Source: an uncultured Methanomicrobiales archaeon
GTDB lineage: Archaea > Halobacteriota > Methanomicrobia > Methanomicrobiales > Methanospirillaceae
Assembly (NCBI GenBank): GCA_963697895.1
Contig: OY969100.1
Coordinates: 704,001-768,000, forward strand
DNA: 64,000 nucleotides
Direction: 5' to 3'
Part shown: piece by piece, positions 43,270 through 47,727 of the stretch
Numbering within the stretch: the stretch's first letter is position 1
Layout of the letters: every line of letters starts with the position of its first letter
The notes under the pieces: generated by a model
Told to the model about the DNA's origin: nothing
The model's database searches: none
What the model saw: the letters and a program-made list of their open reading frames with translations, nothing else
Position numbers and translations under genes: made by a program

Positions 43270-43899
43270 ATGAAAGCGGACCGCATATGTAAAACAGAGA
43301 TTCTCGGAGACCTCACCGACGCTCCATTTTACCTGCCCGTATTTGAGGATGCCTATCGGTTCATTATCGATGATTATTCGATCCCCGACAAAAATATCGT
43401 AATTTTCATCCCATGCGCCATACGAAAGCCATATAGTTCCAGTCCCAGCCATCGGCTCTTCCGGCGGATCATCGATAGTATCCTTGCTCCCGGAGAATAC
43501 CAGATCATCATTTTCGGTACCTGTGGAACCGTACCTGCGGAGCTGGAGTTGATGTACCCGTTCGCCCATTATCATTTCATGCTGGGAAAGTGCACGGATG
43601 AACGAATCAGGAGGGATTTTCACATCATTGAAACATACCGCATTGCGGGTTTCCTGGAGAAGACAAGGCAGACCTATAAAAAGAGAGTCGCCTATTGTAT
43701 CGGACCCTTCCGCGAGGCAATGATTCATGCATCTCAAAGGACCGGAATTGCTATGGATATGTTGCTTCCTTCCAATCCTACGATTGAACGGCAACGTGAT
43801 GAAGATTGTCCGTTCCCTGAAGGGAGCCTTTCGATGAAAGAGTACGTGGATGAATTTCGTGAAGGATTGCAGGAATTGAAAAACACACTCAAACCGTAA
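43270..43899 (+). CDS. DUF5591-like protein (archaeosine-synthase C-terminal-like)
   Basis: FIPCAIRKPYSSSPSH, GTVPAELELMYPFAHY. Confidence 0.8.
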   Translation: MKADRICKTEILGDLTDAPFYLPVFEDAYRFIIDDYSIPDKNIVIFIPCAIRKPYSSSPSHRLFRRIIDSILAPGEYQIIIFGTCGTVPAELELMYPFAHYHFMLGKCTDERIRRDFHIIETYRIAGFLEKTRQTYKKRVAYCIGPFREAMIHASQRTGIAMDMLLPSNPTIERQRDEDCPFPEGSLSMKEYVDEFREGLQELKNTLKP

Positions 43900-44014
43900 A
43901 AAGCTATAAAGCCCTGTGGAGATGTATGGACCGACACCGCGTCACCTGCAGAGAGCGCGTAATATTTATCGCGTCATCGATACTCATTTGTATTGGAATT
44001 CATCTGAGCAGAAA

Positions 44015-44380
44015 ATGGCAGACATTTACGAGAAAATTTACCGGGATCTTGAACATCTCGGTGTGCTTGATGTTAGACAATACGCAGTAATCCATAACGA
44101 TCCCTATCCTCCCCTCTGCATCGACCGGCTGGCTCCCGATCGTTTTGCGATTGCGCATAACCGAAATGATGATGGGACTCTCGTTCCGGATCCGGATATG
44201 GAAATTCGGGTATTCCCGGACAAAAAAATGGCAGAACCACTCACCTATCAGGATGCAAACGGCCGAAGAATTGTGTACCCTGAACCTGGCAAGGTTGATC
44301 TTAAAACGAAAAATGAGCTGACGGTCTATCTCGGGCACTGGCTGAAAGACCTGGTGGAGAAAGGATACCATCGCGAATAA
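44015..44380 (+). CDS. DUF1249/DUF6908-like protein
   Basis: PY.PL.I, AIAH...DG..VPDPDMEIRV, AEPLTYQD, WLKDLVEKGY. Confidence 0.75.
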   Translation: MADIYEKIYRDLEHLGVLDVRQYAVIHNDPYPPLCIDRLAPDRFAIAHNRNDDGTLVPDPDMEIRVFPDKKMAEPLTYQDANGRRIVYPEPGKVDLKTKNELTVYLGHWLKDLVEKGYHRE

Positions 44381-44431
44381 AGAAAATTTCAGGAAAACGG
44401 TGTGCCCCAGACAAGAAATTCACTGAGTACC

Positions 44432-44710
44432 TGTTCGGCCCATGGATAATCCGTCTTGGTCGCCCACCGGCCTTACGCCGTTTTGAGCAGTGGACTCGTT
44501 TTATCCACGCAGTGCCATCTATACCCGTTTGTTCGGCCCCCCAGTGCATTGTCTTTGATCGCTCACCGATCTTACGCCATTTTGAACGGATTACTCAATG
44601 CATCAGGGCATCACGGATATTGAGATACACTGTTCGGCCCTGTGATGATGCGTCTTTGTCGTCGGCAGGTCGTCGCGCCGTTCTGACTTGCAGACTGCCA
44701 TACAGCACAG
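44432..44710. repeat. Three degenerate 55-56-nt non-coding repeats with unique 43-45-nt spacers (candidate structured ncRNA array)
   Basis: TGTTCGGCCC-N11-GTCTT...CGCC(G/A)TT(T/C)TGA at 44432-44486, 44530-44585 and 44631-44686. Confidence 0.85.
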
Positions 44711-44757
44711 CACCGGTATCCCGGTATACTCTTCTCTGAGGCATATCCCAATAGTTG

Positions 44758-44775
44758 TCTTAATATAAAAATATA
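44758..44775 (-). promoter_or_regulatory. Putative TATA box pointing into the repeat array
   Basis: Minus strand reads TTTTATATTAAG, placing a start near 44740, about 50 nt before the first unit; weak because the region is AT-rich. Confidence 0.35.
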
Positions 44776-44877
44776 TCGAAATGAGTACCGTATAAAGAAG
44801 GAGATTGTTTATAGTGTCGATGAAACGCGCATATTTTATCCGTGTATAATTAAAAAATAAATAGGAATTATCTCTCT

Positions 44878-45219
44878 TCAGTGCAGTTCTGGATGGAATT
44901 CCTTCACCGGGGCGCAAGGCCTGTCACCCGAAATAACCCTTTTTATGTCCCTATAGTGCATGATAAAGACTTTCTGCCGTATCAATGCAGTCAGTTCCCT
45001 TTTTTTAACGGAAATGAGGGGTGAAAACCATGCCGTTCCTTCCTGTTCGCCATGAAAATCGACGACTTCGGCAGCCTGATCGCTCGACAACACCAGTATC
45101 TCCTCCGGTGTGATATAGAACCGGGCCCCCGCAATCTCCATGACAAGCCCCTTTCCGGAACGCCGGGCCGAACCAACCGGGGTGTATAGCTCACACACAA
45201 CATGTCTCATGCCACTCAC
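44878..45219 (-). CDS. Hypothetical protein
   Basis: 113-aa ORF with globular composition; no motif recognised. Confidence 0.65.
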   Translation of the reverse strand: MSGMRHVVCELYTPVGSARRSGKGLVMEIAGARFYITPEEILVLSSDQAAEVVDFHGEQEGTAWFSPLISVKKRELTALIRQKVFIMHYRDIKRVISGDRPCAPVKEFHPELH

Positions 45220-45987
45220 CTGAGTATCATGGAACTGTTTCTATGTATAGCTGGCGTCTGACAGTTTTTCTGGCTTATATTCCACAATAACCTATATTTA
45301 GAGGATTTTTGGCTTGCCATTATTGCGAAATGGAAGGAAGGAAAATTGAGGAAAAAAACTCGGATTTTTTTCAAGGTATGAAGAGGATCTCATCCACAGG
45401 CCATCCTAAACCTTCCTACTATGATGACATATACCCATGAGTATGCCGGATGGGATAATGCGCGACAATTGCGCTGCCATTACCCTGTATATCAGAATAA
45501 CAAAATCTTTTCTTGCGTATTTTGTGATGTTTTTATTTTTCCGCATCATATTACAATTATTTTGGCTATTTCCTAAATCTTTTAAGAGATCAGCAAGAGC
45601 ACCCCGAATCTCCGCTCGAAGCGGTATCCGGTAACAATATTCGTCTATTTGAGAGAGTTTCTGCATAAAGTATTTATACAGGAACCTAATAAAAAGAAAA
45701 TTGAAACCAACATGCTCCAGTGTGCTGGTATCATCATATGATCAAGCTGATACTCATCAGAAAATATGGTGGCTGATACTCTTCCAGCATCATTATAAGC
45801 CTCTGCTTGGATCATGTTGGTTCTTTCCTATCAGATGATCATGAGTTTAAAATTAATATAGGACGATGTCCATGTTCCGAGGGATATAATTTTTTTGCCT
45901 TCATAAAAAATAAACAAGCATTCGGGACCAGTATCAGATACGGAAATTAATGATTCACTGGCGACCCTGTCTGCGGGGAATTGGATA

Positions 45988-47727
45988 TCACCCGATTACA
46001 ATGTATGCAATTATGGAAAGAAGAAATGCAAGGAGCAATATCGCGATACTTAATGGACCGATAAAAAGGATCATCGTATTCACCGTACTGGCAAGTTGGG
46101 CAATGCGTTGAGAGCCAAAGACGACGATCCGTTCGCAGGTCACCGTGCTTGCCGAGACTTCAGCAGGTGAGAGATCCTGAAGCGCTGACTGAATCGCAGT
46201 ATTGACAAATCCCAGTATCTCTTCCGGCGGGACATGGAGACCGATTGGATTTTTTCCGGTTATCAGATTTACGACATGAGAATCAGTTGTCATTATTTCT
46301 GCTTCGTCTATTTGCATCAGGATATGATCCCGGAATATTTCTCTCGCACCCGACTCCATATTATTTCCATCGAAGAGCATATACGCCGTGGTTTGACCAT
46401 GCACCCGCACGACCAGGGTCTGTATGCCACGGTCCCCAAATCCCTGTGCACGCGTGAATGGAAGGTTGATCTCTGAGACACCAATTTCAAAGGGGTATTG
46501 ATCCAAGGAAGGTGCTTCGTCGATAGCCTGGGTGCTTGCCTTGATATACTCGGTTGCAAGAAGAGTCGCAGGGAGTACATGGCTGATATCCCCGGTAAAG
46601 GAGTTATGTGCATCAATAAATGCGATGTGAGGAAAAGAGCGATGCCCCTCAGCCATTATCATCAGACCGATGCCGACATCAAGATCTTCAGTTTTTTCCG
46701 GAGATCGGGTGCATATAAGGAGAAGGGCATCCGAAAATCGCTGGAAGAGCAAACTGACCGATCCATACCGGACTCTTTTTGAAATCGATGCGTCATTCGA
46801 ATAGGTAAGTTGATCGCGGGAGCCCTGTACTGCATCGATTATCTTGTCGATCTCTGTCTCGGAAACCAGGTTGAAATCATGGGTGGCAGCTCCGTGGGGT
46901 ACCATTACCAGCTCGTCGAATGCCCTCTGGAAACAATTTGGCAGGTTTCCCCCTCCGATCTCCCCCATCGGACCGGGATGCACATTTGGGATCGTCATAA
47001 TCACCCCGCGACGTTCCGGACGGCGGAAGAAGAGGGTTACCTCGGGTACATAGACTTCTTCGCCAATTTTACGGAAAAATTCCTCGAGGTCTTTGGATCC
47101 ATCGGTGAGATGGGCGATAAATGCATTGACAAAATCCAGAATACGAATATGAAATGTTTTATAGAGGGGTCGCTCGATCAGCCGGATCAGCAAAATAAAG
47201 CCTACACCAAAGAACAGCTGGAGGAGGAGTCCGAGGAGGAGGAACCCTGGCGGTAGAATGAGTGTCCCGAAGATCAGACCGGCAATACTCTGGGTTGCCG
47301 CGGGAATAATCATTCGACGGATACGGTAATCTGCGACAGCAACAAGTATCAGGAGACGAGAACCGAACATGAATCCCAGGGAAATGGCGACTGCAAGGGA
47401 GAGAAGTGAAACAGATAATACCAGCGAGAAGAGGGTGATGATTACCCCGAATACCATAGTCGCGAGGGCCAGCAACGCAGAACGGTTCCAGGTCATCGGT
47501 TTGCCGGTTATGTTGACGAGGACTTTCGTCAGTATTATACCGATGATTGCGGGAATAGTGAATACCAGAGATCCGAGAAAATGGTAGGAATCTCCGATCC
47601 GGAAGCTGACAACATCGAGGAGAAGCCCGATGATAATGATGATTCCGACCGAGATTGGCCAGGAAGGTGCGCTGAACAGATAACGGGCAAGCCGTTCGAG
47701 CCGTACATCTCCCTGGAGCACCATCAA
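45988..47727 (-). CDS. DUF2070 family membrane protein
   Basis: N-terminal TM helices; HPGPMGEIGGGNLP, HGAATHDFN, DAHN, DGNNM, TTDSH. Confidence 0.88.
   Translation of the reverse strand: MMVLQGDVRLERLARYLFSAPSWPISVGIIIIIGLLLDVVSFRIGDSYHFLGSLVFTIPAIIGIILTKVLVNITGKPMTWNRSALLALATMVFGVIITLFSLVLSVSLLSLAVAISLGFMFGSRLLILVAVADYRIRRMIIPAATQSIAGLIFGTLILPPGFLLLGLLLQLFFGVGFILLIRLIERPLYKTFHIRILDFVNAFIAHLTDGSKDLEEFFRKIGEEVYVPEVTLFFRRPERRGVIMTIPNVHPGPMGEIGGGNLPNCFQRAFDELVMVPHGAATHDFNLVSETEIDKIIDAVQGSRDQLTYSNDASISKRVRYGSVSLLFQRFSDALLLICTRSPEKTEDLDVGIGLMIMAEGHRSFPHIAFIDAHNSFTGDISHVLPATLLATEYIKASTQAIDEAPSLDQYPFEIGVSEINLPFTRAQGFGDRGIQTLVVRVHGQTTAYMLFDGNNMESGAREIFRDHILMQIDEAEIMTTDSHVVNLITGKNPIGLHVPPEEILGFVNTAIQSALQDLSPAEVSASTVTCERIVVFGSQRIAQLASTVNTMILFIGPLSIAILLLAFLLSIIAYIVIG

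Follow-up and report, generated by a model that had tools for sequence, protein, structure and literature searches.

The subject of this analysis is a group of three repeats in a 64,000-nucleotide stretch of DNA from an uncultured Methanomicrobiales archaeon (contig OY969100.1 of GenBank assembly GCA_963697895.1, positions 704,001 to 768,000), referred to here as the window. The genome carries mcrA, the mark of a methanogen, at another place than the repeats. To the left of the repeats lie three plus-strand genes for PEGA-domain, DUF5591 and DUF6908/DUF1249 proteins, the last of which ends at 44380, and the first gene with a family match on the right encodes a DUF2070 membrane protein on the minus strand. 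A sequence-only reading of the window had described the site as a gap between two convergent genes; the flanking genes are indeed convergent, but the right-hand one begins only at 45988. The 104-aa open reading frame (ORF) at 44603-44917 that overlaps the repeats is without Pfam match, as are the small ORFs beside them. The repeats share the block TGTTCGGCCC, present in the window as three exact copies at 44432, 44530 and 44631, and the motif CGCCRTTYTGA, of which three copies occur (44476, 44575 and 44676) against 0.18 expected; three copies were reached in none of 100 shuffles. A composite pattern of the unit gave three matches across the 2,091,725-base genome, all at this locus, while its reversed control gave none. 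Pattern counts, shuffles and the whole-genome scan confirm the three units at 98- and 101-nt spacing that had been noticed by eye, and neither spacing is a multiple of three, as expected of a repeat without codon periodicity. The results described below show that these repeats are three homologous arms of one ~340-nt non-coding RNA (ncRNA), which is encoded on the minus strand and extends from ~44745 to 44403.

The first homologues were obtained through a weak DNA match to a relative from a different genus, where the same three units follow the orthologous DUF6908 gene; a third genus has them as well. Over 40 relatives, DNA similarity returned two weak true matches (E 0.008 and 0.8), the rest being noise. 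The variable stems of two relative genera differ from those of the window and yet remain complementary. In an alignment of 60 arms, which was fitted to a covariance model and hence favours structure, compensatory changes were found in all 21 stem pairs, and 89.7% of the stem cells were paired; shuffles gave 63.5%, none of 500 being as high, and sliding the partners by 1-3 columns gave 31-43%. An independent RNAalifold fold of nine units aligned with MAFFT gave the same stems, with 15 of the 21 pairs compensated. Each arm is built of a lower stem of ~10-12 bp with free sequence, an internal loop, an upper stem of ~9-11 bp and an apical loop of ~13 nt with the sequence (U/C)CAAAACGGC(G)NAAGA. 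In the internal loop a single A on the 5' side stands opposite 8 nt, GA(C/A)(A/G)A(A/G)GA, on the 3' side, and G-C pairs flank it. This structure is visible by covariation and not by single-sequence energy. Minimum free energy folds of the single units on the plus strand are not below those of shuffles (z -0.19, -0.17 and +0.71), and one of the three minus-strand folds beats its shuffles (z -2.13, -0.57 and -0.35). The sequence-only reading had pointed out that the variable segment of each repeat is complementary to its own spacer. That complementarity is real, the pairings being the lower stem of each arm, and it covaries in relatives. The inner hairpins proposed at the same time (GGTCG/CGGCC and GATCG/CGATC) hold as local alternatives in the window genome but not as the family-wide upper stem, which encloses the CGCC..TGA block as its apical loop.

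Each arm is further closed upon itself by a fold-back pseudoknot, in which CGGC of the apical loop pairs with GCCG of the tail GGGGCCGAACA directly 3' of the same arm. Both motifs are present in 48 of the 60 arms, 99.6% of the pseudoknot cells are paired and double changes are seen in 2 of the 4 pairs. Four arms of three families carry CGGU together with ACCG (L045, L046, L049 and L053) and two genomes of one genus carry CAGC together with GCUG (L034 and L036); the other departures amount to two wobbles and one non-pair. A CGGC/GCCG pseudoknot between the fixed ends of a unit had been suggested from the window alone, and the compensatory changes in relatives now back it. The RNA at locus L053 has CGGU/ACCG in arms 1 and 2 and CGGC/GCCG in arm 3. 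Because these arms differ and yet each matches itself, the pairing takes place within one arm and not between arms.

The arms are numbered along the minus strand, which reverses the numbering of the copies used earlier. Arm 1 (44631..44716, earlier copy 3) matches the covariance model with 81.3 bits, arm 2 (44530..44606, earlier copy 2) with 79 bits and arm 3 (44431..44512, earlier copy 1) with 87.9 bits. According to structure and covariation, the lower stem of arm 1 is formed by 44705-44697 with 44651-44640. Its apical loop at 44688-44669 contains the pseudoknot strand CGGC (44680-44677), and the 3' strand of its internal loop, GACAAAGAC (44660-44652), and its tail, GGCCGAACA (44639-44631), lie further 3'. 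In arm 2 the lower stem joins 44602-44596 with 44551-44545, the apical loop occupies 44586-44570 with UGGC as its pseudoknot strand, and the tail GGGGGGCCGAACA extends over 44542-44530. Arm 3 has its lower stem at 44508-44501 with 44449-44442, its upper stem at 44495-44490 with 44467-44462, an apical loop at 44489-44468 (pseudoknot CGGC at 44480-44477), the 3' strand of the internal loop at 44461-44450 and the tail GGGCCGAACAG at 44441-44431.

The transcribed strand, which the sequence-only reading had left undecided, is settled as the minus strand by three lines of evidence, namely the excess of G-U over A-C pairs, a conserved promoter and a T-run. Read as minus strand, the stems contain 138 G-U-type and 44 A-C-type pairs. 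Of the 138, 48 represent one conserved U-G pair that was later reassigned to the pseudoknot, and without it the ratio is still about 2:1. The arm 2 pseudoknot UGGC/GCCG likewise contains a G-U pair on the minus strand, whose plus-strand counterpart would be a mismatch of A and C. Because G-U exceeds A-C, the repeats are read as RNA rather than as a repeat maintained at the DNA level. The minus-strand TATA-like box and the T-run that had been spotted beside the repeats are both present. The former belongs to a canonical archaeal promoter composed of a transcription factor B recognition element and a TATA box, GATATATTTTTATATT (44762..44777). This promoter stands 24-27 nt ahead of the conserved 5' sequence, and its consensus GAAA..TAT.TATA is kept in 14/14 loci of the same family. 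The conserved 5' end, GGAUAUGCCUCAGA (44735..44748), contains the GCCUCAG that is kept in all loci, and transcription is predicted to start at ~44747-44742 from the distance to the TATA box. The T-rich stretch CCGUUUUCCUGAAAUUUUCUUUAUU (44376..44400) is presumed, as read in the sequence, to be an oligo-T terminator; in another family GUUUUU stands directly 3' of the RNA. Oligo-T runs terminate archaeal transcription.

Between these signals the three arms are tied together by paired strands of their own. The first 17 and last 18 nt of the RNA form a closing helix, P1, which reaches 8 bp or more in 29 of 30 RNAs, with energies of -16 to -27 kcal/mol versus -6 to -15 for shuffles. P1 covaries, occurring as GCCUCAG/CUGGGGC 14 times, as GCCUCGG/CCGGGGC four times and as GCCUGAG/CUCGGGC once. 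In the window its 5' strand at 44743-44735 pairs with its 3' strand UCUGGGGCA at 44411-44403, directly followed by the T-rich stretch. Inside P1 lies a second, G-U-rich helix, P2, in which GAGUAU (44726..44731) is proposed to pair with GUACUC at 44430-44425, the two 3' strands together making up the closing segment 44403..44430. Reading of the alignment yields equivalents of P2 in relatives, for example GGGGAUAC with GUGUUUCC. The linkers between the arms also appear to pair with each other, the 3' part of linker 1 (44607..44630) serving as the 5' strand of a stalk below arm 2 and the 5' part of linker 2 (44513..44529) as its 3' strand. In the window this duplex has an energy of -20.8 kcal/mol, compared with -2.6 and -2.5 for the self-folds of the two linkers, a value that none of 200 shuffles reached. 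In all 12 RNAs of the family that could be parsed (two more could not), pairing between the linkers is more stable than either self-fold. Of 200 shuffles, at most 3 reached the energy of the duplex in 7 of these 12 RNAs, and 15, 15, 23, 30 and 84 did so in the others. An alternative architecture, a pseudo-threefold ring of three arms alternating with local linker hairpins, was dropped because in the window and in one further genus the linkers lack self-complementarity and pair with each other. Since P1, P2 and the stalk tie the arms together, the units are parts of one closed RNA, which is best described, as a model, by a four-way junction at which P2, arm 1, the stalked arm 2 and arm 3 meet. 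The loci have a common frame, with 5' G(G/A)U(A)UGCCUCAG, then the arms, then 3' ..C(U)GGGGCA(C) and then T-runs. What had been called a tandem array is correct as to three homologous units, but these units are arms of a single closed molecule on a junction rather than members of an array.

Public RNA data contain this element as an abundant and discrete transcript. Parts of a 701-nt query were found in 20 metatranscriptome runs from 14 studies, and four runs from four studies, one contig each, were aligned over 44000-45400. The contig of run X1 covers 44406-44729 at a depth of 312 and that of run X4 covers 44406-44724 at a depth of 232, with sequencing-adapter letters on both sides. Run X7 gave 44454-44727 at a depth of 84, and run X8 gave 44566-44715 at a depth of 4.7, identical to the window. 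In these four runs contig cover was zero on the flanks 44000-44375 and 44752-45400; the uncovered flanks serve as a control for DNA carry-over and are not to be taken as evidence of silent genes there. Because DNA carry-over would not have spared the flanks, the contigs are attributed to an abundant discrete RNA. Variants among the contigs keep the lower stem of arm 3 paired, with G-U changed to G-C at 44442 and A-U changed to G-U at 44504 (minus strand). The contig ends coincide between studies, at 44406 twice and at 44724, 44727 and 44729 within 5 nt; one contig runs directly into adapter letters, and another goes on with unrelated letters. As these ends sit inside the strands of P1 and P2, the mature RNA may be trimmed.

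The RNA is found in several families of methanogens within one order. A first covariance model, R1, built from nine units, matched 40 of 151 genomes of the order, mostly with three hits side by side, and a second, R2, built from 60 arms, matched 44 of the 151, representing 12 of 34 genera. In model scans with strict filters the RNA was not found in one family of the order (0 of 29 genomes), nor in 132 genomes of other families of the phylum; these scans scored only ~25 candidates per genome, and 'not found' is therefore not equivalent to absent. A search of genome contigs with the pattern AAACGGC-N(20-50)-GGGCCGAAC returned at least 120 chance matches, mostly bacterial, and is uninformative on distribution. 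The number of arms depends on the lineage. Some lineages have three, some have arms 1 and 3 flanking a different long hairpin, and some have one, the one-arm RNAs being ~125-150 nt long with several such genes possible per genome. In one family (L052, L054; G071, G125) the one-arm RNA lies directly downstream of a small ferredoxin-like gene whose product ends in ...CPVTVI(I/F)VED*. Two or three such RNAs occur per genome in the family of L052 and L054, and in G071 two copies lie 3.8 kb apart. Genome G137 has two complete three-arm copies on separate contigs (C25:10786-11089 and C14:3002-3307), which can be either a duplication or an effect of assembly or binning.

Comparison with described RNAs yielded no counterpart. 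A search of 43800-46200 of the window with Rfam 15 at E up to 10 gave three matches, all at chance level: mir-33 with 21.5 bits (gathering threshold 50), CRISPR-DR33 with 16.7 bits (gathering threshold 39) and a fungal small nucleolar RNA outside the element. The same database gave no matches at E up to 1 in nine homologous loci. Collections of phages and plasmids contained nothing similar to the RNA. Full-text literature contained nothing on it either, within a search that did not extend to supplementary lists of candidate RNAs, which could hold it. RNase P RNA and signal recognition particle (SRP) RNA are not candidates, as both were found elsewhere in the genome with archaeal models (207 and 173 bits, respectively). 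The element is transcribed and covaries, has no Rfam match and bears no coding signal. The proposal of a structured ncRNA of several pseudoknotted units is borne out by covariation, by conservation across the order and by RNA contigs confined to the element, which is very probably a real and new family of structured ncRNA.

Its nearest likenesses in general character are OLE, GOLLD, HEARO, ROOL and raiA, the large 'orphan' structured ncRNAs of bacteria. Like these, the RNA measures several hundred nucleotides, has numerous covarying helices with invariant nucleotides in loops and junctions, and is standalone, lineage-restricted and abundant in RNA data, with a function that cannot be read from sequence. 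Unlike them, it is archaeal, is built from an internally triplicated pseudoknot module in variable number and shows no similarity to any Rfam family. Its fold, its internal triplication and its archaeal host set it apart from the bacterial orphan ncRNAs. In archaea, very few large structured ncRNAs are known besides ribosomal RNA, transfer RNA, RNase P RNA, SRP RNA and guide RNAs. The present RNA is conserved across several methanogen families, and nothing described in the searched sources matches it. That it is restricted to methanogens suggests a possible connection with their physiology, and lineages with different arm numbers provide a natural experiment on the evolution of modular RNA by internal duplication. 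Owing to its size and compactness, the RNA is also a realistic target for cryo-electron microscopy and for pull-down of its partner.

The function that we favour is that of a scaffold or decoy acting in trans, in which the arms would be binding modules; we put its probability at about one in three. Each arm would fold back by ~180 degrees at its A-rich loop, allowing the apical loop to reach the base of its own arm. This geometry is proposed because the loop must reach the foot of its own 20-bp hairpin, and the nearly equal lengths of the two stems fit it. The three apical loops would then dock onto the junction strands and give a compact fold. Each arm is considered an autonomous module because ~40 of its loop and junction nucleotides are fixed whereas its helices are free to vary, and because arm number depends on lineage. 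In this proposal every arm would bind the same partner, a protein or a small ligand, and the RNA would act as a multivalent scaffold or decoy, neither as a cis-regulator nor as a guide. The working analogy is with CsrB and RsmZ, which also present repeated binding modules, variable in number, on an abundant trans-acting RNA. The analogy has its bounds, as the modules here are ~85-nt pseudoknotted arms and not short GGA hairpins, and as the genome offers no matching sites elsewhere.

Several observations weigh against the scaffold or decoy. The partner of the RNA is postulated, as is the binding of the arms to it. A regular-expression search together with a hairpin scan of the window's own genome gave only chance matches to further arm-like hairpins, and there is thus no obvious mimicry of messenger RNA sites of the kind known from CsrB-type decoys. 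About 40 fixed nucleotides per arm together with a pseudoknot are more typical of riboswitch aptamers and ribozymes than of protein-binding hairpins. The topology of P2 and the stalk is deduced from thermodynamic comparison and from reading of the alignment. About two thirds of the genomes sampled from the order yielded no match to the RNA, which may reflect either real absence or limited sensitivity of the models. The contig ends inside P1 and P2 (44406; 44724-44729) cannot say whether processing, stops of reverse transcription or assembly produced them, and contigs cannot show strand, level, true ends or processing.

A different function is possible, at a lower level of belief, for the same architecture. 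The RNA would represent a previously undescribed class of large, compact archaeal RNA with its loops docked on the junction, an architecture no less intricate than those of riboswitches and ribozymes. It could itself be a catalyst or a cooperative sensor for a methanogen-specific metabolite and not a passive scaffold, and in some lineages it may have co-evolved with an adjacent RNase III-domain protein. If the arms do bind a ligand or catalyse a reaction, the RNA would add a new riboswitch or ribozyme class to a domain of life in which few are known.

That the arms are tandem ligand-sensing aptamers, for a small molecule, perhaps a methanogen-specific cofactor or an ion, is unlikely. Such an RNA would act as a cooperative sensor, either in trans or through read-through into the antisense of the DUF6908 gene. 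The ~40 conserved loop and junction nucleotides surrounding covarying helices, the fold-back pseudoknot, the variation of module copy number and the confinement to one methanogen order are all compatible with aptamers. Tandem aptamers such as those of the glycine riboswitch similarly repeat a conserved module within one transcript and close each module by tertiary contacts. The RNA differs from them in that it has its own promoter and a T-run directly behind the helix that joins its two ends, and in that no expression platform is visible. No coding gene follows on the same strand, where the only downstream sequence is the antisense of the convergent DUF6908/DUF1249 gene, the genes neighbouring the RNA differ from family to family, and no Rfam riboswitch matches. 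On these features the RNA was rejected as a riboswitch acting in cis.

Less likely again is a catalytic RNA, in which the arms or the whole junction would be a ribozyme, for example a series of self-cleaving modules that cut a multimeric transcript. Pseudoknotted compact folds are common among small self-cleaving ribozymes, and the tandem modules with their invariant unpaired nucleotides resemble these. In the window and the nine homologous loci, models for the hammerhead, twister, pistol, hatchet and hepatitis delta virus (HDV) ribozymes gave no match at permissive thresholds. A conserved P1 closes the whole RNA, and the contigs span all three arms unbroken at high depth, although cleavage could hide in contigs and this point is not decisive.

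Equally improbable is the proposal that the RNA is a substrate or regulator of a nuclease of the RNase III family, with P1 and P2, the stalk and the arm helices being cut by, or titrating, a dedicated enzyme. It derives from a ~225-aa gene, comprising a 120-aa N-terminal part of unknown kind and an RNase III domain (PF00636), that lies on the opposite strand and starts within ~250 nt of the RNA. This adjacency holds for every genome with both, 14 of 14, and these genomes represent three genera from two families other than that of the window. In one family, RNA and gene occur in the same 10 of 12 genomes and are both missing in the other 2. Examples are L050:738-1412 (minus strand), L198:87-779 (plus strand), L199:131-814 (plus strand) and L200:361-1038 (minus strand). 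The N-terminal ~120 aa of this divergently encoded protein are conserved (MHRxLxW...PSTRNLF) and uncharacterised, Pfam and NCBIfam recognising the RNase III part only. Also in favour of a nuclease, the contig ends lie inside P1 and P2. These ends lack the 2-nt offset across the helix expected of RNase III cuts, and the related genomes behind the association are not independent of one another. Furthermore, no full-length match to the protein was found among 31 genomes of the window's family, the window's own included. In two further families gene and RNA do not lie side by side, and in one of these only 4 genomes are shared between the 13 and 12 in question. Other types of RNase III domain are present in 144 of the 151 genomes of the order, with or without the RNA. 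A co-occurrence by genus with a 'long' RNase III was discarded, the protein of the window's family being an ordinary RNase III with a double-stranded-RNA-binding domain and unrelated to the neighbour gene. The RNase III-domain protein may process or bind the RNA in some lineages, but it cannot be its general partner.

A divergent three-hairpin H/ACA guide RNA for pseudouridylation is very improbable. Archaeal H/ACA RNAs consist of one to three tandem hairpins with an ACA tail and are of similar size, three-hairpin forms exist, and the present RNA has short conserved ACA tails (AGA in some middle arms). The internal loop cannot be a site-specific two-stranded guide pocket, as its 5' strand is a single A and its 8-nt 3' consensus is common to all arms and genera; identical loops between arms are not what guides have. 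In H/ACA RNAs ~14-16 nt separate the base of the upper stem from the ACA/ANA box on its 3' side, whereas in the ACA-containing tails found here that distance is ~27-29 nt. The tail's GCCG is engaged in the pseudoknot, and no Rfam H/ACA family matches. A kink-turn (K-turn) or K-loop, the L7Ae site expected in the upper stem or apical loop, could, by reading, be placed in no register with tandem G-A pairs and a 3-nt bulge without breaking covarying pairs; candidates at the internal loop or the base of the arm (GAUGCC with GGCCGA) either conflict with pairs that covary or have their strands in the wrong polarity. The RNA was equally rejected as a box C/D RNA. The GUGAUGA...CUGA of copy 3 lies on the plus, untranscribed strand, and although (A/G)UGAUGC and CCGA do occur beside some arms on the minus strand, the sequence next to them is paired in the lower stem. 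The failure of the repeats to fit CRISPR (clustered regularly interspaced short palindromic repeats), C/D, H/ACA, hammerhead, twister or HDV consensus by eye is borne out by these feature tests and by the Rfam models.

Hardly credible, finally, is a separate small-RNA array (type III antitoxin-like, as the sequence-only reading had considered, or CRISPR-like) or a DNA repeat (a decayed coding repeat or protein-binding iterons): the regular ~100-nt spacing, the alternation of fixed and variable blocks and the pseudoknotted units speak for an array, but the variable parts pair and covary inside units that a closing helix and junction join, the flanking genes tested showed no domain of a toxin, a Cas protein or a reverse transcriptase and no phage or plasmid matches, and a DNA or coding repeat is countered by the spacing, by the overlapping ORF that belongs to no protein family, by the excess of G-U over A-C and by compensatory substitutions. 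The 'spacers' of a supposed CRISPR are stem halves that pair and covary within their own unit, and the number of units is not growing. ToxI-like type III antitoxins resemble the RNA in having tandem direct repeats that fold as pseudoknots. The ToxI repeat unit is 36 nt long. Here the units are ~100 nt, form a single closed molecule at a chromosomal, syntenic locus and are spread across an order, with neither an adjacent toxin gene nor plasmid or phage copies; a domain search of the flanking genes (PADLOC not used) left only the antisense of the DUF6908/DUF1249 gene downstream on the minus strand.

The surroundings of the RNA show some further regularities. The DUF6908/DUF1249 protein (~140-154 aa) adjoins the 3' end of the RNA in the window (43916-44380, plus strand) and in one other genus (L025:1995-2417, minus strand), and in the third genus of the window's family a gene for a 2-thiouracil desulfurase/DUF1722 protein takes this place instead. 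On the 5' side, ~1.2 kb of AT-rich DNA (44800-45988 of the window) separates the promoter of the RNA from the DUF2070 gene; its two longest ORFs were tested and have no Pfam match. A plus-strand TTTATAG lies there at ~44808. A GCGCG core occurs ~95 nt upstream of the 5' end of the RNA in 12 of 14 loci of the family, often within a short palindrome such as TGTGCGCGCACA. In the window this site is at ~44838-44846 (ATGCGCG, minus strand), and it has the same position in L024-L037. The GCGCG site may be the site of a regulator or the start of a divergent transcript.

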